Positions 16,681 to 61,774 of a stretch of DNA of 64,000 bases are shown here, piece after piece. Positions within the stretch are counted from its first letter, which is position 1; each line of letters begins with the position of its first letter. Below the pieces are notes generated by a model that saw only the letters and a program-made list of their open reading frames with translations, was not told the DNA's origin and searched no databases. The stretch is from Felis catus. Its lineage: Eukaryota. The stretch spans positions 87,112,001 through 87,176,000 of the forward strand of contig NC_058368.1 in NCBI RefSeq assembly GCF_018350175.1. Direction: 5' to 3'. The translations under genes and the position numbers were made by a program.

Positions 16681-18232
<1,552 letters not shown>

Positions 18233-18255
18233 AGACTCAGGGGGACAAAATTTCA

Positions 18256-21200
18256 GAGGCAGCTGGGAAGATGGCAGCGTAGGAGGGCGCTGGGCCCACT
18301 GCGTGTCCTGCTGATCACTTAGATTCCACTTACACCTGCCTAAATAACCCAGAAAAACAACAGAAGGCTAGCAGAATGGAGTCCACAGAGCCAAGTGCAG
18401 ATGAGAGGCCCAAAGAAGAGGGGCCCCTCCTGAAGCGGATCTCTGAAGGAAAAGCAAGCTGAGCCTGCCCCTCCTGGCTCTGTGCACTTTGCCGATCCAC
18501 CCCAGCTAATACGCCAAATCCCCAGCACCACAAGCCTGGCAGTGTGCAAGTAGCCCAGATGGGCCACACCACCCCACAGTGAATCCCGCCCCTAGGAGAG
18601 GGGAAGAGAAGGCACACACCAGTCTGACTGTGGCCCCAGCGGTGGGCTGGGGCAGACATCAACCTGACTGTGGCCCCGCCCACCAACTCAAGTTATTCAA
18701 GACAGAACGGGGGAAATGCCCTTCAGTTCCACAACACACCAGGGACTATCCAAAATGACGAAATGGAAGAATTCCCCTCAAAACAAACGTCCAGGAAAAA
18801 ACAACAGGTAACGAACTGATCAAAAACGATTTAAACAATATAACAGAAAGTGAATTTAGAATAATAGTCATAAAATTAATCGCTGGGCTTGAAAACAGTA
18901 TAAAGGACAGCAGGGAATCTATTGCTACAGAGATCCAGGGACTAAGGAACAGACAGGAGGAGCTAAAAAATGCTATCAATGAGCTGCAAAATAAAATGGA
19001 GACAACCAAGGCTCGGATTGAAGAGGCAGAGGAGAGAATAGGTGAACGACAAGATAAAATTATGGAAAAAGAAGAAGCTGAGAAAAAGATAGATTAAAAA
19101 ATCCAGGAGTATGAGGGGAAAAGTAGAAAACTAAGTGATGCACTAAAGAGAAATAATCTACGAATAATTGGTAATCCAGAGGAGGAAGAGAGAGGGAAAG
19201 GTGCTGAAGGTGTACTTGAAGAAATCATAGCTGAGAACTTCCCTGATCTGGGAAAGGAAAAAGGCATTGAAATCCAAGAGGCACAGAGAACTCCCTTCAG
19301 ATGTAACTTGAATCGATCTTCTGCATGACATATCATAGTGAAACTGGCAAAATACAAGGATAAAGAAAGAATTCTGCAAGTAGCTAGAGATGAACGTGCT
19401 GTAACATATAAAGGGAGACCTATAAGACTCGTGACCGATCTCTCTACTGAAACTTGGCAGGCCAGAAAGGAATGGCAGGAGATCTTCAATGTGATGAAGA
19501 GAAAAAATATGCAGCCCAGAATCCTTTATCCAGCAAGTCTGTCATTTAGAATAGAAGGAGAGATAAAGGTCTTCCCACACAAACAAAAACTGAAGGAATT
19601 TGTCACCACTAAACCAGCCCTACAAGAGATCCTAAGGGGGATCCTGTGAGACAAAGTACCAGAGACATGACTACAAGCATGAAACCTATGGACATGACAA
19701 TGACTCTAAACCCATATCTTTCTATAATAACACTGAATGTAAATGGACTAAATGCGCCAACCAAAAGACATAGGGTATCAGAATGGATAAAAAAACAAGA
19801 CCCATCTATTTGCTGTCTACAAGAGACTCATTTTAGATCTGAGGACACCTTTAGATTGAGAGTGAGGGGATGGAGAACTATTTGTCATGCTACTGGAAGT
19901 CAAAAGAAAGCTGGAGTAGCCATACTTATATCAGACAAACTAGACTTTAAATTAAAGGCTGTAGCAAGAGATGAAGAAGGGCATTATATAATAATCACAG
20001 GGTCTATCCATCAGGAAGAGCTAACAATTATAAATGTCTATGCATCGAATACAGGAGCCCCCAAATATATAAAACATTACTCACAAACATAACCAACCTT
20101 ACTGATAAGAATGTGGTAATTTCAGGGGACTTGAACACTCCACTTACAGAAATGAATAGATCATCTAGACACATGGTCAATAAAGAAACAAGGGCCCTGA
20201 ATGATACATTGGATCAGATGGACTTGACAGATATATTTAGAACTCTGCATCCCAAAGCAACAGAATATACTTTCTTCTCGAGTGCACATGGAACATTCTC
20301 CAAGATAGATCATATACTGGGTCACAAAACAGCCCTTCATAAGTTTACAAGAATTGAAATTATACCATGCATACTTTCAGACCACAATGCTATGAAGCTT
20401 GAAATCAACCACAAGAAAAAGTCTGGAAAACCTCCAAAAGCATGGACGTTAAAGAACACCCTACTAACGAATGAATGGGTCAACCAGGCAATTAGAGAAG
20501 AAATTTAAAAATATATGGAAACAAACAAAAATGAAAACAACAATCCAAACGCTTTGGGATGCAGCGAAGGCAGTCCTGAGAGGAAAATACATTGCAATCC
20601 AGGCCTATCTCAAGAAACAAGAAAATCCCAAATACAAAATCTAACAGCACACCTAAAGGAAATAGAAGCAGAACAGCAAAGACAGCCTAAACCCAGCAGA
20701 AGAAGAGAAACAAGAAAGATCAGAGCAGAAATAATATAGAATCTAAATAAACTGTAGAGCAGATCAACGAAACCAAGAGTTATTTTTTTTGAAAAAATAA
20801 ACAAAATTGATAAACCTCTAGCCAGGCTTCTCAAAAAGAAAATGGAGATGACCCAAATAGATAAAATGATGAATGAAAATAGAATTATTACAACCAATTC
20901 CTCAGAGATACAAGCAATTATCAGGGAATACTATGAAAAATTATATGGCAACAAACTGGACAACCTGGAAGAAATGGACAAATTCCTAAGCACCCACACG
21001 CTTCCAAAACTCAATCAGGAGGAAATAGAAAGCTTGAACAGACCCATAACCAGAGAAGAAATTGAATCAGTCATCAAAAATATACAGTCATCAACAAATA
21101 AGAGTCCAGGGCCAGATGGCTTCCCAGGGGAGTTCTATCAGATATTTAAAGCAGATAATACCTATCCTTCTCAAGCTATTCCAAAAAATAGAAAGGAAAG

Positions 21201-23742
21201 GAAAACTTCCAGACTCATTCTATGAAGCCAGTATTACTTTGATTCCTAAACCAGACAGAGACCCAGTAAAAAAAGAGAACTACAGGCCAATATCCCTGAT
21301 GAAGATGGATGCAAAAATTCTCAATAAGATACTAGCAAATCGAATTCAACAGCATATACAAAGAATTATTCACCATGATCAAGTGGGATTCATTCCTGGG
21401 ATGCAGGGCTTGTTCAACATTTGCAAACCAATCAATGTGACACATCACATTAATAAAAGAAAAGATAAGAACCATATGATCCTGTCAATCGATGCAGAAA
21501 AAGCCTTTGACAAAATTCAGCACCCTTTCCTAATAAAAACCCTCAAGAAAGTCGGGATAGAAGGAACATACTTAAAGATCATCAAAGCCATTTATGAAAA
21601 GCCCACAGCTAACATCATCCTCAATGGGGAGAAACTGAGAGCTTTTTCCCTGAGATCAGGAACACAACAGGGATGCCCACTTTCACCGCTGTTGTTTAAC
21701 ATAGTGTTGGAAGTTCTAGCATCAGCAATCAGACAACAAAAGGAAATCAAAGGCATAAAACTTGGCAAAGATGAAGTTAAGCTTTCACTTTTTGGAGATG
21801 ACATGATATTACACATGGAAAATCCGATAGATTCCACCAAAAGTCTGCTAGAACTGATACATGAATTCAGCAAAGTTGCAGGATACAAAATCAATGTACA
21901 GAAATCAGTTGCATTCTTATACACTAATAATGAAGCAACAGAAAGACAAAGAAACTGATCCCATTCACAATTGCACCAAGAAGCATAAAATACCTAAAAA
22001 TAAACCTAACCAAAGATGTAAAAGATCTGTATGCTGAAAACTATTGAAAACTTATGAAGGAAATTGAAGAAGATATAAAGAAATGGAAAAACATTCCATG
22101 CTCAGGGATTGGAAGAATAAATGTTGTCAAAATGTCAATACTACCCAAAGCTATCTACACATTCAATGCAATCCCAATCAAAATTTCACAAGCATTCTTC
22201 TCAAAACTAGAACAAGCAATCCTAAAATTCCTATGGAACCACAAAAGGCCCCGAATAGCCAAAGTAATTTTGAAGAAGAAGACCAAAGCAGGAGGCATCA
22301 CAATCCCAGACTTTAGCCTCTACTACAAAGCTGTCATCATCAAGACAGCATGGTATTGGCACAAAAACAGACACATAGGCCAATGGAATAGAATAGAAAC
22401 CCCAGAACTAGACCCACAAACATATGGCCAACTCATCTTTGACAAAGCAGGAAAGAACATCCAATGGAAAAAAGACAGTCTCTTTAACAAATGGTGCTGG
22501 GAGAACTGGACAGCAACATGCAGAAGATTGAAAGTAGACCACTTTCTCACACCATTCACAAAAATAAACTCAAAATGGATGAAGGACCTGAATGTGACAC
22601 AGGAAACCATCAAAACCCTAGAAGAGAAAGCAGGAAAAAACCTCTGACCTCAGCCATAGCAATTTCTTACTTGACACATCCCCAAAGGCAAGGGAATTAA
22701 AAGCAAAAATGAACTACTGGGACCTTATGAAGATAAAAAGCTTCTGCACAGCAAAGGAAACAACCAAGAAAACTAAAAGGCAACCAATGGAATGGGAAAA
22801 GATATTTGCAAATGACATATCGGACAAAGGGCTAGTATCCAAAATCTATAAAGAGCTCACCAAACTCCACACCCGAAAAACAAATAACCCAGTGAAGAAA
22901 TGGGCAGAAAACATGAATAGACATTTCTCTAAAGAAGACATCCGGATGGCCAACAGGCACATGAAAAGATGCTCAACGTCACTCCTCATCAGGGAAATAC
23001 AAATCAAAACCACACTCAGATGTCACCTCACGCCAGTCAGAGTGGCCAAAATGAGCAAATCAGGAGACTATAGATGCTGGAGAGGATGTGGAGAAACGGG
23101 AACCCTCTTGCACTGTTGGTGGGAATGCAAATTGGTGCAGCCACTCTGGAAAACAGTGTGGAGGTTCCTCAGAAAATTAAAAGTAGACCTACCCTATGAC
23201 CCAGCAGTAGCACTGCTAGGAATTTACCCAAAGGATACAAGAGTACTGATTCATAGGGGCACTTGTACCCCAATGTTTATAGCAGCACTCTCAACAATAG
23301 CCAAATTATGGAAAGAGCCTAAATGTCCATCAACTGATGAATGGATAAAGAAATTGTGGTTTATATACACAATGGAGTACTATGTGGCAATGAGAAAGAA
23401 TGAAATATAGCCCTTTGTAGCAACGTGGATGGAACTGGAGAGTGTAATGTTAAGTGAAATAAGCCATACAGAGAAAGACAGATCACTCTTATGTGGATTC
23501 TGAAAAACTTAACAGAAACCCATGGGAGAGGGAAAGGGAAAAAAAAAAGGAGGTTAGATTGGGAGAGATTCAAAGCAGAAGAGACTCTTAAAACTCTGAG
23601 AACAAACTAAGGATTGATAGGAGGTGGGAGGGAGGGGAGGGTGGGTGATGGGTATTGAGGAGGGCACCTTTTGGGATGAGCACTGGGTGTTGTATGGAAT
23701 CCAATTTGGCAACAAATTCCATACATTGGAAAAAAAAATAAA
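18256..23742 (+). mobile_element. Near full-length felid L1, inactivated, with a short (apparently spliced) 5'UTR
   Basis: 5' end gctgggaagatggc; ORF1 ATG 18755 to 19649 with in-frame TGA at 19326; ORF2 from ~19700 (MTLNPYLSIITLNVNGLN) broken into several ORFs; RT motif reads FGDD; G-rich 3'UTR and A-tail ~23730-23742. Confidence 0.97.
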
Positions 23743-25519
23743 GTAGATATATTGCCTACCTTTCTCAAGCTGTTCCAAAACATAGAAAGGGAAGGAAAAC
23801 TTCCAGACTTATTCTATGAAGCTAGCATTACTTTGATTCCCAAACCAGAGACCCAGCCAAAAAAGGGAACTACAGGCCAATATCCCTGATGAATATGGAT
23901 ACAAAAATTCTCAATAAGATACTAGCAAATTGAATTCAACAGCATATAGAAAGAATTATTCACCATGATCAAGTGGGATTCATTCCTGGGATGCAGGGCT
24001 GGTTCAACATTCACAAATTAACCAATGTGATACATCATATTAATAAAAGAAAAGAAAATAACCATATGATCCATTCAATCAATGCAGAAAAATCATTTGA
24101 CAAAATTCAGCATCCTTTCTTAATAAAACTCCTCAAAAATGTCGGGATAGAGGGAACATACTTAAACATCATAAAAGCCATTTATGAAAACCCCACAGCT
24201 AATATCCTCAATTAGGAAAAACTGACAGCTTTACCCCTGAGATCAGGAACACGACAAGGGTGCCCACTCTCACCACTGTTGTTTAACATAGTGTTGGAAG
24301 TTCTAGCATCAGCAATCAGACCACAAAAGGAAATCAAAGGCATCAAAATTGGTAAAGATGAAGTTAAGCTTTCACTTTTTGCAGATGACATGATACTATA
24401 CATGGAAAAACTGAAAGACTGCACCAAAAGTCTTCTAGAACTGGTACATGAATTCAGCAAAGTCTCAGGATATAAAATTAATGTACAGAAATCAGTTGCA
24501 TTCTTATACACTAATAATGAAGCAAAAAAAAAGAAATAAAGAAACTGATCCCATTCACAATTGCACAAGAATCATAAAATACCTAGGAATAAACCCAACC
24601 AAAGATGTAAAAGATATGTATGCTGAGAATTGTAGAAAGCTTATGAAATTGAGGAAATTCAAAGAAATGGAAAAACTTTCCGTGCTCATGAATTGGAAGA
24701 ATAAATACTGTTAAATGTCAATACTACCCAAAGAAATCTACACATTCAATAAAATCCCAATCAAAATTGCACCAGCATTCTTCTCAAAGCTAGAACAAGC
24801 AATCTTAAAATTTGTATGGAACCACAAAAGACCGCGAATAACCAAAGTAACTTTGAAGAAGACCAAAACGGGAGGCATCACAATCCCAGAGTATAGCATC
24901 TCTTACCAAGCTGTAATCATCAAGACAGCATGGTATTGGCACAAAAACAGACACATAGGCCAATGGAGTAGAATAGAAGCCCCAGAATTAGACCCACCAA
25001 AGGATGGCCAACTAATCTTTGACAAAGCAGGAAAGAATATCCAATGGAAAAAGTCTCTTTAACAAATGGTGCTGGGAGAACTGGACAGCAACATGCAGAA
25101 GAATGAAACTAGACCACTTTCTTACACCATTCACAAAAGTAAACTCAAATGGATGAAGGTCCTGAATGTGAGACAGGAAACCATCAAAACCCTAGAGGAG
25201 AAAGCAGGAAAAAAACTTCTCTGACCTCAGCTGCAGCAGTTTCTTACTTGACACATCTCCAAAGATAAGGGAATTAAAAGCAAAAATGAACAATTGGGAC
25301 CTCTTGCAGATAGCAAGCTTCTGCATTGCAAAGGAAACAATCAACAAAACTCAAAGGCAGCGAACGGAATGGCAAAAGATATTTGCAAATGACATATCAG
25401 ACAAAGGGCTAGTATCCAAATCTATAAAGAACTCACCAAAGTCTACACCCAAAAAACAATAATCCAGTGAATAAATGGGCAGAAAACATAAATAGACTCT
25501 TCTCTAAAGAAGACATCCA

Positions 25520-25735
25520 GTGGTGCCTGGGTAGCTCAGTTGGTTGGGCGTCCAACTTCGGCTCAGGTCATGATCTCGTGGTTTGTGAGTTTGAGCCCTC
25601 GCGTCAGGTCTGTGCTGACAACTCAGAACCAGGAGCCTGCTTTGGATTCAGTGTCTCCCTCTCTCTCTTCCCCTCCCCACTCATACTCTGTCTCTCTCTC
25701 TCCTTCAAAAATAAACATTAAAAAAATTTAAAAAA
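25520..25735 (+). mobile_element. CAN-SINE inserted in L1 ORF2
   Basis: Outer TSD aagacatcca at 25510-25519 and 25965-25974. Confidence 0.92.
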
Positions 25736-25950
25736 GGGGCGCCTGGGTGGCGCAGTCGGTTGAGCGTCCGACTTCAGCCAGGTCACGATCTCGCGGTCCG
25801 TGAGTTCGAGCCCCGCGTCAGGCTCTGGGCTGGTGGCTCAGAGCCTGGAGCCTGTTTCCGATTCTGTGTCTCCCTCTCTCTCTGCCCCTCCCCCGTTCAT
25901 GCTCTGTCTCTCTCTGTCCCAAAAATAAATAAACGTTGAAAAAAAATTAA
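25736..25950 (+). mobile_element. Young SINEC_Fc inserted in the A-tail of the preceding SINE
   Basis: ggggcgcctgggtggcgcagtcgg head; TSD aaaaaatttaaaaaa on both sides. Confidence 0.93.
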
Positions 25951-26784
25951 AAAAAAATTTAAAAAAGACATCCAATGGCCAACAGGCACATGAAAAGATG
26001 TTCAACGTCACTCCTCATCAGGGAAATAAAAATCAGAACCACACTGAGATATCACCTCATGCCAGTCAGAGTGGCTAAAATGAACAAATCAGGAGACTAT
26101 AGATGCTGGAGAGGATGTGGAGAAATGGGAATCCTCTTGCACTGTTGGTGGGAATGCAAACTGGTTCAGCCACTCTGGAAAACAGTGTGGAGGTTCCACA
26201 AAAAATTAAAAATAGATGTACTCTATGACCCAGCAATAGCACTGCTAGGAATTTACCCAAGGGATACAGAAGTGCTGATGCAGAGGGGCTCTTGTACCCC
26301 AATGTTTATAGCAGCTCTTTCAACAGTAGCCAAATTATGGAAAGAGCCTAAATGTCCATCAACTGATGAATGGATAAAGCAATTGTGGTTTATATACGCA
26401 ATGGAATATTACGTGGCAATGAGAATGAAAGATATATGGCCTTTTGTAGCAACATGGATGGAACTGGAGAGTGTTATGCTAAGTGAAATAAGTCATACAG
26501 AGAAAGACAGATACCATATGTTTTCACTCTTATGTGGATCCTGAGAAACTTAACAGAAGACCATTGGGGAAGGGTAGTGGAAAAAAAAATTTACAGACAG
26601 GGAAGGAGGCAAACAATAAGAGACTCTTAAAAACTGAGAATAAACTGAAGGTTGTGGGGGGGGGGCGGTGGGAGGGAGGGGTAAGTGGGTGATGGACATT
26701 GAAGAGGGCACCTGTTGGGATGAGCACTGGGTTTTGTATGGAAGCCAATTTGACAATAAGTTTCATATTTTTTTTTTAAAAAAA

Positions 26785-26915
26785 GTATACTTGTCATGAG
26801 GAGCACTGGGTAATGTATAGAATTGTTGAATCACTATATTGTACACCTGAAACTAATATACCACTGTATGTTAAATATACTAGAATTTTCAAAAAACCTA
26901 ATAAATAAATAAAAA
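26785..26915 (+). mobile_element. Isolated 3' terminus of an older carnivore L1
   Basis: gagcactgggtaatgtatagaattgttgaatcactatattgtacacctgaaactaatata...aataaa. Confidence 0.8.
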
Positions 26916-60760: not shown

Positions 60761-60793
60761 GTGGTCTTTTAGTCTTACTTCTGGCTGCATGTG

Positions 60794-61774
60794 ATGATGG
60801 GAATAGCCAATGCAAGTTCTCCAGAAGTCTTTGTACTCCTGGGCTTCTCTGCACGACCCTCACTGGAACCTATCCTCTTCATCATTGCCTTAGGGTTTTA
60901 TGTGGTGTCTGTCTTGGACAATGGCATCATCATTCTGGTTTCCTGCATGGATGTGCACCTCCACACTCCTATGTATTTCTTCCTTGCCAATCTCTCCTTC
61001 CTGGACATTAGCTTTACCACAAGCATTGTCCCACAACTCCTGGTCAACCTCTGGGGACCACAGAAAACCATAAGCTCTGTAGGGTGTATGGTCCAGTTCT
61101 ACATCTCTCACTGGCTGGGGGCCACCGAATGTGTCCTTCTGGCAGTCATGTCCTATGATCGCTATGCCGCCATTTGTAGGCCACTACATTATACTGTCAT
61201 CATGCATCCACAGCTTTGTCTCAGCTTGGCCTTTGCTTCCTGGCTTGGGGGTCTGACTACAAGCATAGTGGGCTCCACACTCACTATGCTTCTGCCACTG
61301 TGTGGAAACAATCGCATTGACCACTTCTTCTGTGAGATGCCCCTCATTATGCAACTGGCTTGTGTGGATACCAGCCTCAATGAGGTGGAGATGTATGTGG
61401 CCAGCTTTATCTTTGTTGTCTTGCCTCTGGGTCTCATCCTGGTTTCATATGGCCACATTGCCTGGGCTGTAATGAAGATCAGGTCAGCAGAAGGACGGAG
61501 AAAGGCCTTCAACACCTGCTCTTCCCATGTGGCAGTTGTGACTCTATTTTATGGGAGCATCATCTTTATGTATCTCCAGCCAGCCAAGAGTAACTCTCAT
61601 GAACAGGGTAAGTTCATAGCCCTCTTCTATACTGTTGTCACCCCGATGCTGAACCCCCTGATTTACACACTCAGGAACAAAGATGTGAAGAAGGCTCTCA
61701 GGCACATTGCATCAGAGAATTGCTGTGGCTTTGCAGGATCATTGGGACATATTAGAGATGTGAGTAACTTGTGA
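60794..61774 (+). CDS. OR2C3: Olfactory receptor, family 2 subfamily C member 3 (326 aa, class II OR)
   Basis: Intact ORF with LHTPMYFFL, MSYDRYAAICRPLHY, HFFCE, KAFNTCSSH, PMLNPLIYTLRN; closely matches recalled human OR2C3, and adjacency to GCSAML fits human 1q44 synteny. Confidence 0.93.
   Translation: MMGIANASSPEVFVLLGFSARPSLEPILFIIALGFYVVSVLDNGIIILVSCMDVHLHTPMYFFLANLSFLDISFTTSIVPQLLVNLWGPQKTISSVGCMVQFYISHWLGATECVLLAVMSYDRYAAICRPLHYTVIMHPQLCLSLAFASWLGGLTTSIVGSTLTMLLPLCGNNRIDHFFCEMPLIMQLACVDTSLNEVEMYVASFIFVVLPLGLILVSYGHIAWAVMKIRSAEGRRKAFNTCSSHVAVVTLFYGSIIFMYLQPAKSNSHEQGKFIALFYTVVTPMLNPLIYTLRNKDVKKALRHIASENCCGFAGSLGHIRDVSNL

Follow-up and report, generated by a model that had tools for sequence, protein, structure and literature searches.

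Results

A full-length felid L1 with a short leader

The window, which here means the whole 64,000-nt stretch of Felis catus DNA that was analyzed, is AT-rich and dense in L1 sequence. The only gene recognized in it is an open 333-codon olfactory receptor frame (60773-61774, PF13853), located 37 kb away from the element that is the subject of this report. This element is an L1 on the plus strand that runs from approximately position 18265 to a short poly(A) tract at 23730-23738. Its parts, and those of the L1 that adjoins it, are as follows, where L001 denotes a related L1 with an intact leader.

18265..18421, plus strand: L1 5′UTR "exon 1" (before the donor), 87% to L001
18421..18422, plus strand: splice junction, at which a 416-nt GT..AG block of L001 is missing (~429 nt in most copies)
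18422..18754, plus strand: L1 5′UTR "exon 2" (after the acceptor), 89% to L001 over 18421-19537
18492..18494, plus strand: second intra-leader acceptor position, CCG in the window and CAG in L001, used in P0102
18755..19649, plus strand: ORF1, dead, with a frameshift near 18785-18790 and stops at 19095 and 19326; Pfam PF17490 and PF02994
19682..23490 (ends approximate), plus strand: ORF2 (endonuclease and reverse transcriptase), in several open stretches, from reading frames and Pfam
21796..21797, plus strand: AG in ORF2, the position joined to the same leader donor in P0214; ~3.8 kb would be removed
23730..23738, plus strand: short poly(A) of the spliced L1, abutting the second L1
23739..26785, plus strand: second L1, 5′-truncated, matching the first at 88.7% and 86.2% and interrupted by two SINE-like inserts (~25519-25959)

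The 5′ end of the element is complete. Near this end, at 18268-18275, the sequence reads AAGATGGC, a YY1-like motif, and the alignments of other copies stop at this motif too (loose ends at L001 position 1697). Because ORF1, ORF2, and the poly(A) tract are also present, the copy is otherwise full-length, and its leader measures only ~490 to 500 nt before ORF1 starts at 18755. A first-pass annotation of the same DNA had described this short leader and the junction at 18421/18422.

The copy is old and dead, as its ORF1 carries a frameshift and two stops and its ORF2 is fragmented, with Pfam matches to PF03372/PF14529 at 19975-20505 and to PF00078 at 21050-21955. Where L001 has 18 CpGs, the copy retains 10. 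It is a decayed fossil without evident function. Its ORF1 piece shares 91% identity with an entry from Panthera leo, 84% with a Felis catus cluster of 234 members, and 54 to 64% with Crocuta proteins; since the closest relatives are felid L1 proteins, the element in the window is a felid L1. The locus itself is real and common to sequencing runs, because 14 DNA-type runs, all from one organism and chosen as holders of this sequence, carry 0.88 to 0.91 of the words sampled from 17000-18800.

The leader lacks a block bounded by GT and AG

The only intact leader available as DNA was the long leader of a felid L1 on L001, a 1,760-nt metagenome contig. This contig was the sole match when metagenome contigs were scanned with a sequence pattern, and no relative was found in the viral contigs or prokaryote genomes scanned. 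L001 aligns with the window on both sides of position 18421 (18265-18421 and 18421-19537, at the identities listed above), and between the two aligned parts it carries 416 extra nucleotides that start with GTAGGAAG and end with GCCGCAG. The first-pass annotation had placed a leader block of ~400+ nt here in the cat L1 and had proposed that its loss would correspond to an exact GT-AG intron. Both expectations are borne out by L001, in which the leader is not contiguous with the window copy and the gap at the junction has GT and AG ends. The window sequence equals that of the splice product. L001 lacks ~13 nt (12 nt plus 1 nt) that are found in most copies, and thus by arithmetic the usual intron would be ~429 nt.

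In L001 the donor lies ~170 nt from the 5′ end and the main acceptor ~585 nt in. The donor, AGG/GTAGGA, agrees only modestly with the U1 consensus. A pyrimidine-rich run is present on the acceptor side, where the sole other AG of the last 80 nt is at −30. There is also a branch-like CTGAC at −23.

Two sets of DNA contigs aligned to L001 cover the block deeply, and therefore the intact leader is the rule. The window junction is not an assembly slip, because it is also present in a contig of the set X1, although this contig may represent the window locus itself.

The element lies among older L1 copies

Searches for a target-site duplication around the first L1, around both L1s taken together, and after the second L1 gave only chance matches; nothing in the 5′ flank resembled the ends of either L1 beyond the chance level. 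The second L1 occupies the place where the 3′ duplication would be expected. It directly adjoins the first and terminates (window 23739-26915) within the 3′ tail of an even older L1. At the boundary between the poly(A) tract of the first L1 and the second L1, the homologous ORF2 sequence reads TTT/AAAG, which is endonuclease-like. This 3′ junction fits priming within an older L1 with loss of the upstream part of that L1, and it fits recombination as well.

Such an arrangement bears on the strongest alternative to a fresh insertion of spliced RNA, in which the junction does come from a spliced RNA but was acquired by cDNA conversion of a resident full-length L1 or by recombination that fused the spliced 5′ portion of one L1 with the 3′ portion and flanking DNA of a second. 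In its favor, no target-site duplication was found, and the upstream and downstream flanks derive from older L1s but are not continuous with one another, in a region where L1 copies are dense. Against it, neither end of the element is damaged, and its 3′ junction coincides with an endonuclease-like site, which is what priming at this place would give. We consider conversion or recombination unlikely on balance, while ranking it above the other alternatives.

Two further possibilities at this site were set aside. A 3′ transduction by the second L1 was rejected since the sole candidate duplication is too weak, and a chimera with a 5′ host exon has no support, as no host exon is indicated upstream. 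At ~16800-17715, on the minus strand and within an older minus-strand L1, there is a broken intronless gene copy that looks to us like ribosomal protein SA; a 41-residue piece of it has no Pfam match.

The junction recurs, and the same donor is joined to other acceptors

We searched protein collections with translated leader sequence, including two antisense-frame queries that span the junction and one query confined to exon 1. The four informative spliced matches (P0102, P0117, P0150, and P0214) are each a single contig that was read only as protein and that may be DNA or RNA. Such searches reach leader copies because gene callers translate stray leader DNA. The counts are biased by ORF-length filters, and both cross-junction queries favor spliced matches.

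With the first antisense-frame query, 67 of 70 matches enter the block, two stop before it, and one (P0102) is joined elsewhere; the exact junction of the window is present in none of the 70. The second yielded 16 matches, three of which are long proteins of low identity that were left out of the count. The remaining 13 are L1-derived and comprise one spliced match (P0117), one match with a different deletion that does not involve the donor (P0126), two that stop early, and nine that enter the block. With exon 1 alone as the query, 118 of the 120 matches listed (from 216 in total) enter the block, and two are spliced (P0150 and P0214).

P0117 and P0150 carry the window junction and align ungapped across it, and all three sequences are distinct. 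The junction is therefore not unique to the window copy; uniqueness would have counted against the proposal of the first-pass annotation. At two variable positions P0150 has RI and V, and the window and P0117 have K and E. Both variant types are common in intact copies (KT in 61 of 120 and RI in 30 of 120; E in 34 of 70 and V in 10 of 70), so at least two backgrounds gave rise to the junction.

The same donor also has other partners. In P0102, exon 1 is joined 72 nt past the main acceptor, at a place where L001 has CAG and the window has CCG. An extra piece of L1 leader lies directly upstream of the 5′ end of this spliced element, as in tandem or nested leaders. A DNA contig from set X4 joins the donor 45 nt before the main acceptor, where L001 has CGG. 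This junction would be canonical only if the source carried the CAG variant, which occurs in 5 of 22 informative translations. Indeed, both alternative sites vary among copies, with CGG, CAG, or TGG at L001 plus-strand position 1172 and CCG, CGG, or CAG at 1055, and acceptors could be switched on or off via CpG decay or subfamily change. A further joint in X4, 1081-1544, likewise begins at the donor, but with its far end undefined it is not counted as a new acceptor. A 10-nt direct repeat just past the main acceptor (window 18423-18432 and 18467-18476) may explain it.

In P0214 the leader donor is joined to an AG within the reverse transcriptase of ORF2, ~3.8 kb downstream (window 18421 to 21798). 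A copy or RNA of this type, without ORF1 and half of ORF2, would need both proteins to be supplied in trans.

Recurrence by itself is also what one would see if a single spliced or deleted master had kept some activity and seeded a small subfamily with short leaders, in which case the recurrences would not be independent. The X1 contig that carries the junction has a depth of 49.6, versus 17 to 31 for most single-contig joints in X1, although depths near twice the single-copy value are not read here as copy numbers. Moreover, the literature describes one human SpIRE under the control of a host promoter (see Discussion). Against such a master stand the presence of the junction on two subfamily backgrounds, the use of other acceptors, and the rarity of such copies (the 2 of 120 among the matches listed). 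We regard it as distinctly improbable.

The block ends fit splicing better than template skipping or deletion

The junction is ambiguous by 2 nt, and there are three equivalent placements of the deletion, one of which is GT..AG. Among the 257,505 distinct deletions of at least 50 nt in the L001 leader, 944 (0.37%) are compatible with GT..AG ends. The 4-nt repeat AGGG occurs at both ends of the block. A product of microhomology would retain three G residues at the joint, whereas the window, like the splice product, has four.

The reverse transcriptase might instead have skipped a folded, GC-rich stretch of unspliced RNA during insertion. The block is 63% GC, the leader is predicted to fold strongly, with the donor itself paired in a stem, and a fixed structure could make skips recur. 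Nevertheless, no stem is predicted between the two ends of the block (0.31 expected pairs from donor to acceptor), the junction ambiguity is only 2 nt, and skipping gives no reason for stopping at AG in two further places. This makes such a skip very improbable. An ordinary DNA deletion in an integrated full-length L1, by microhomology end joining or slippage and ending by chance at GT and AG, is the least credible explanation of all: old L1s are described as decaying through internal deletions, and DNA contigs contain many unrelated skips, with P0126 as one case, but the four G residues, the 0.37% chance, the identical junction in independent copies, and the joining of the same donor to other AG ends all speak against it.

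RNA reads on the intact leader

When two RNA read sets were placed on L001, no spliced RNA joint was seen among the joints listed (15 of 79) or the "letters between" entries listed (12 of 26). The ratio of block depth to exon 1 depth is 0.26 and 0.19 in RNA versus 0.51 and 0.66 in DNA contigs, a difference that is suggestive, the measures not being like for like. In read set X24, minus-strand first mates outnumber plus-strand ones over L001 1535-1711 (exon 1), opposite to the pattern in the ORF1 bins; depending on the strandedness of the library, this is a possible sign of an antisense leader transcript. Also in X24, 20 molecules start at one place in exon 2, L001 position 1088, beside which the depth is 90.

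Discussion

A spliced RNA as the probable source of the element

The precise loss of a GT..AG block, the recurrence of the junction, the use of one donor in all cases, and the low frequency of spliced copies together make it likely, as judged from sequence comparison, that the window holds an L1 of the SpIRE type in the felid lineage. The element almost certainly derives from a spliced RNA. We assign a probability of roughly 0.8 to the more specific reading that it is the direct insertion of an independently spliced L1 RNA. The proposal of the first-pass annotation that this is a SpIRE-like element thus gains support: the intact leader is interrupted at this place by a GT-to-AG block, the junction recurs in other copies, and one donor is joined to several acceptors, as in human SpIREs.

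The following course of events would account for the element. The source L1, a member of an older felid subfamily, would have been transcribed from its own internal promoter, and in a few percent of its RNAs the spliceosome would have joined the donor at ~170 nt to the acceptor at ~585 nt. Such a spliced RNA may then have been retrotransposed in cis, which was possible because the splice left both ORFs untouched. Priming probably occurred at an endonuclease-like site inside an older L1, and the 5′ duplication would have been lost by target-site deletion or later rearrangement. The resulting copy was probably a dead end with a weak promoter, and it would have decayed since. A weak promoter is expected because the missing block holds 24 of the 43 leader CpGs, as counted in L001.

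Comparison with known spliced L1s

As described by Larson et al. (2018, PMC5860796), human SpIREs account for 131 of 6,609 full-length L1s (~2%), and those spliced within the 5′UTR (SpIRE97/622, 97/790, and 97/853) belong to a set with one donor and four acceptors. The same paper describes reduced promoter activity of SpIREs and the appearance of new acceptors after a change of leader. The felid element resembles the human intra-5′UTR class in being an otherwise full-length L1 that lacks a GT-AG block of the leader. Likewise, several acceptors share the felid donor, and the choice among them is tied to leader sequence. The felid frequency of 2 in 120 among the matches listed is close to the human ~2%. 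Unlike in human SpIREs, the leader is felid; in L001 its donor falls at about nt 170 and its main acceptor at about nt 585. Human SpIREs "generally" have a target-site duplication (PMC5860796), which is a hallmark of insertion and not part of the definition, whereas none was found at the felid copy.

The junction of P0214 has a partial human counterpart. Human SpORF2 RNAs are reported to join the leader donor to far-downstream acceptors that leave ORF2 whole (Belancio et al. 2010, PMC2896524). P0214 is similar in that the leader donor is joined far downstream, but it enters ORF2 inside the reverse transcriptase. A leader-to-ORF2 junction of this kind is absent from the four human acceptors named in the discussion of Larson et al. 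(PMC5860796). A third comparison is with the RAP1GDS1/L1PA2 SpIRE chimera, which is said to have borrowed a host promoter and multiplied (bioRxiv 10.1101/2025.02.02.635956). The felid copy is likewise a genomic L1 with a spliced leader; unlike the chimera, it has no indicated host exon upstream.

The human donor is given as ~46 My old (PMC5860796), and the L1 survey literature describes a lineage split of 92 My and the frequent replacement of L1 leaders by unrelated ones. Since the human donor is younger than the split and leaders are often replaced, we infer an independent felid origin, and hence a convergence of leader splicing in the two lineages that rests on literature ages and not on alignment. 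Among the titles listed by searches of a mostly open-access literature, none concerned spliced L1 copies in carnivores; by word search, the text of a 2026 canine review does not mention SpIRE, and the texts of mouse and horse L1 surveys do not mention splicing.

What the felid case means

The mechanism is known from humans. What is new is the felid lineage, the set of acceptors, and an apparent leader-to-ORF2 class. More tentatively, and at somewhat less than even odds, felid L1 may have independently evolved a whole SpIRE system, with one donor, ~2% of insertions over several subfamilies, at least three acceptors switched by single-base changes (CCG/CGG/CAG, at two sites), and a leader-to-ORF2 class that moves in trans. 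If this were true, leaky splicing would burden mammalian L1 leaders in general, whatever the lineage, and a catalogue of junctions would amount to a dated record of germ-line L1 splicing. Counts of junctions by subfamily would provide a direct test of whether acceptors come and go with changes in the leader.

There is also a practical warning, in that some "full-length" cat L1s may have been promoter-damaged from birth. More broadly, the finding of a carnivore case with a probably unrelated leader suggests that L1s with internal promoters repeatedly pay for them through splicing of the promoter region, and that this is not a primate accident.
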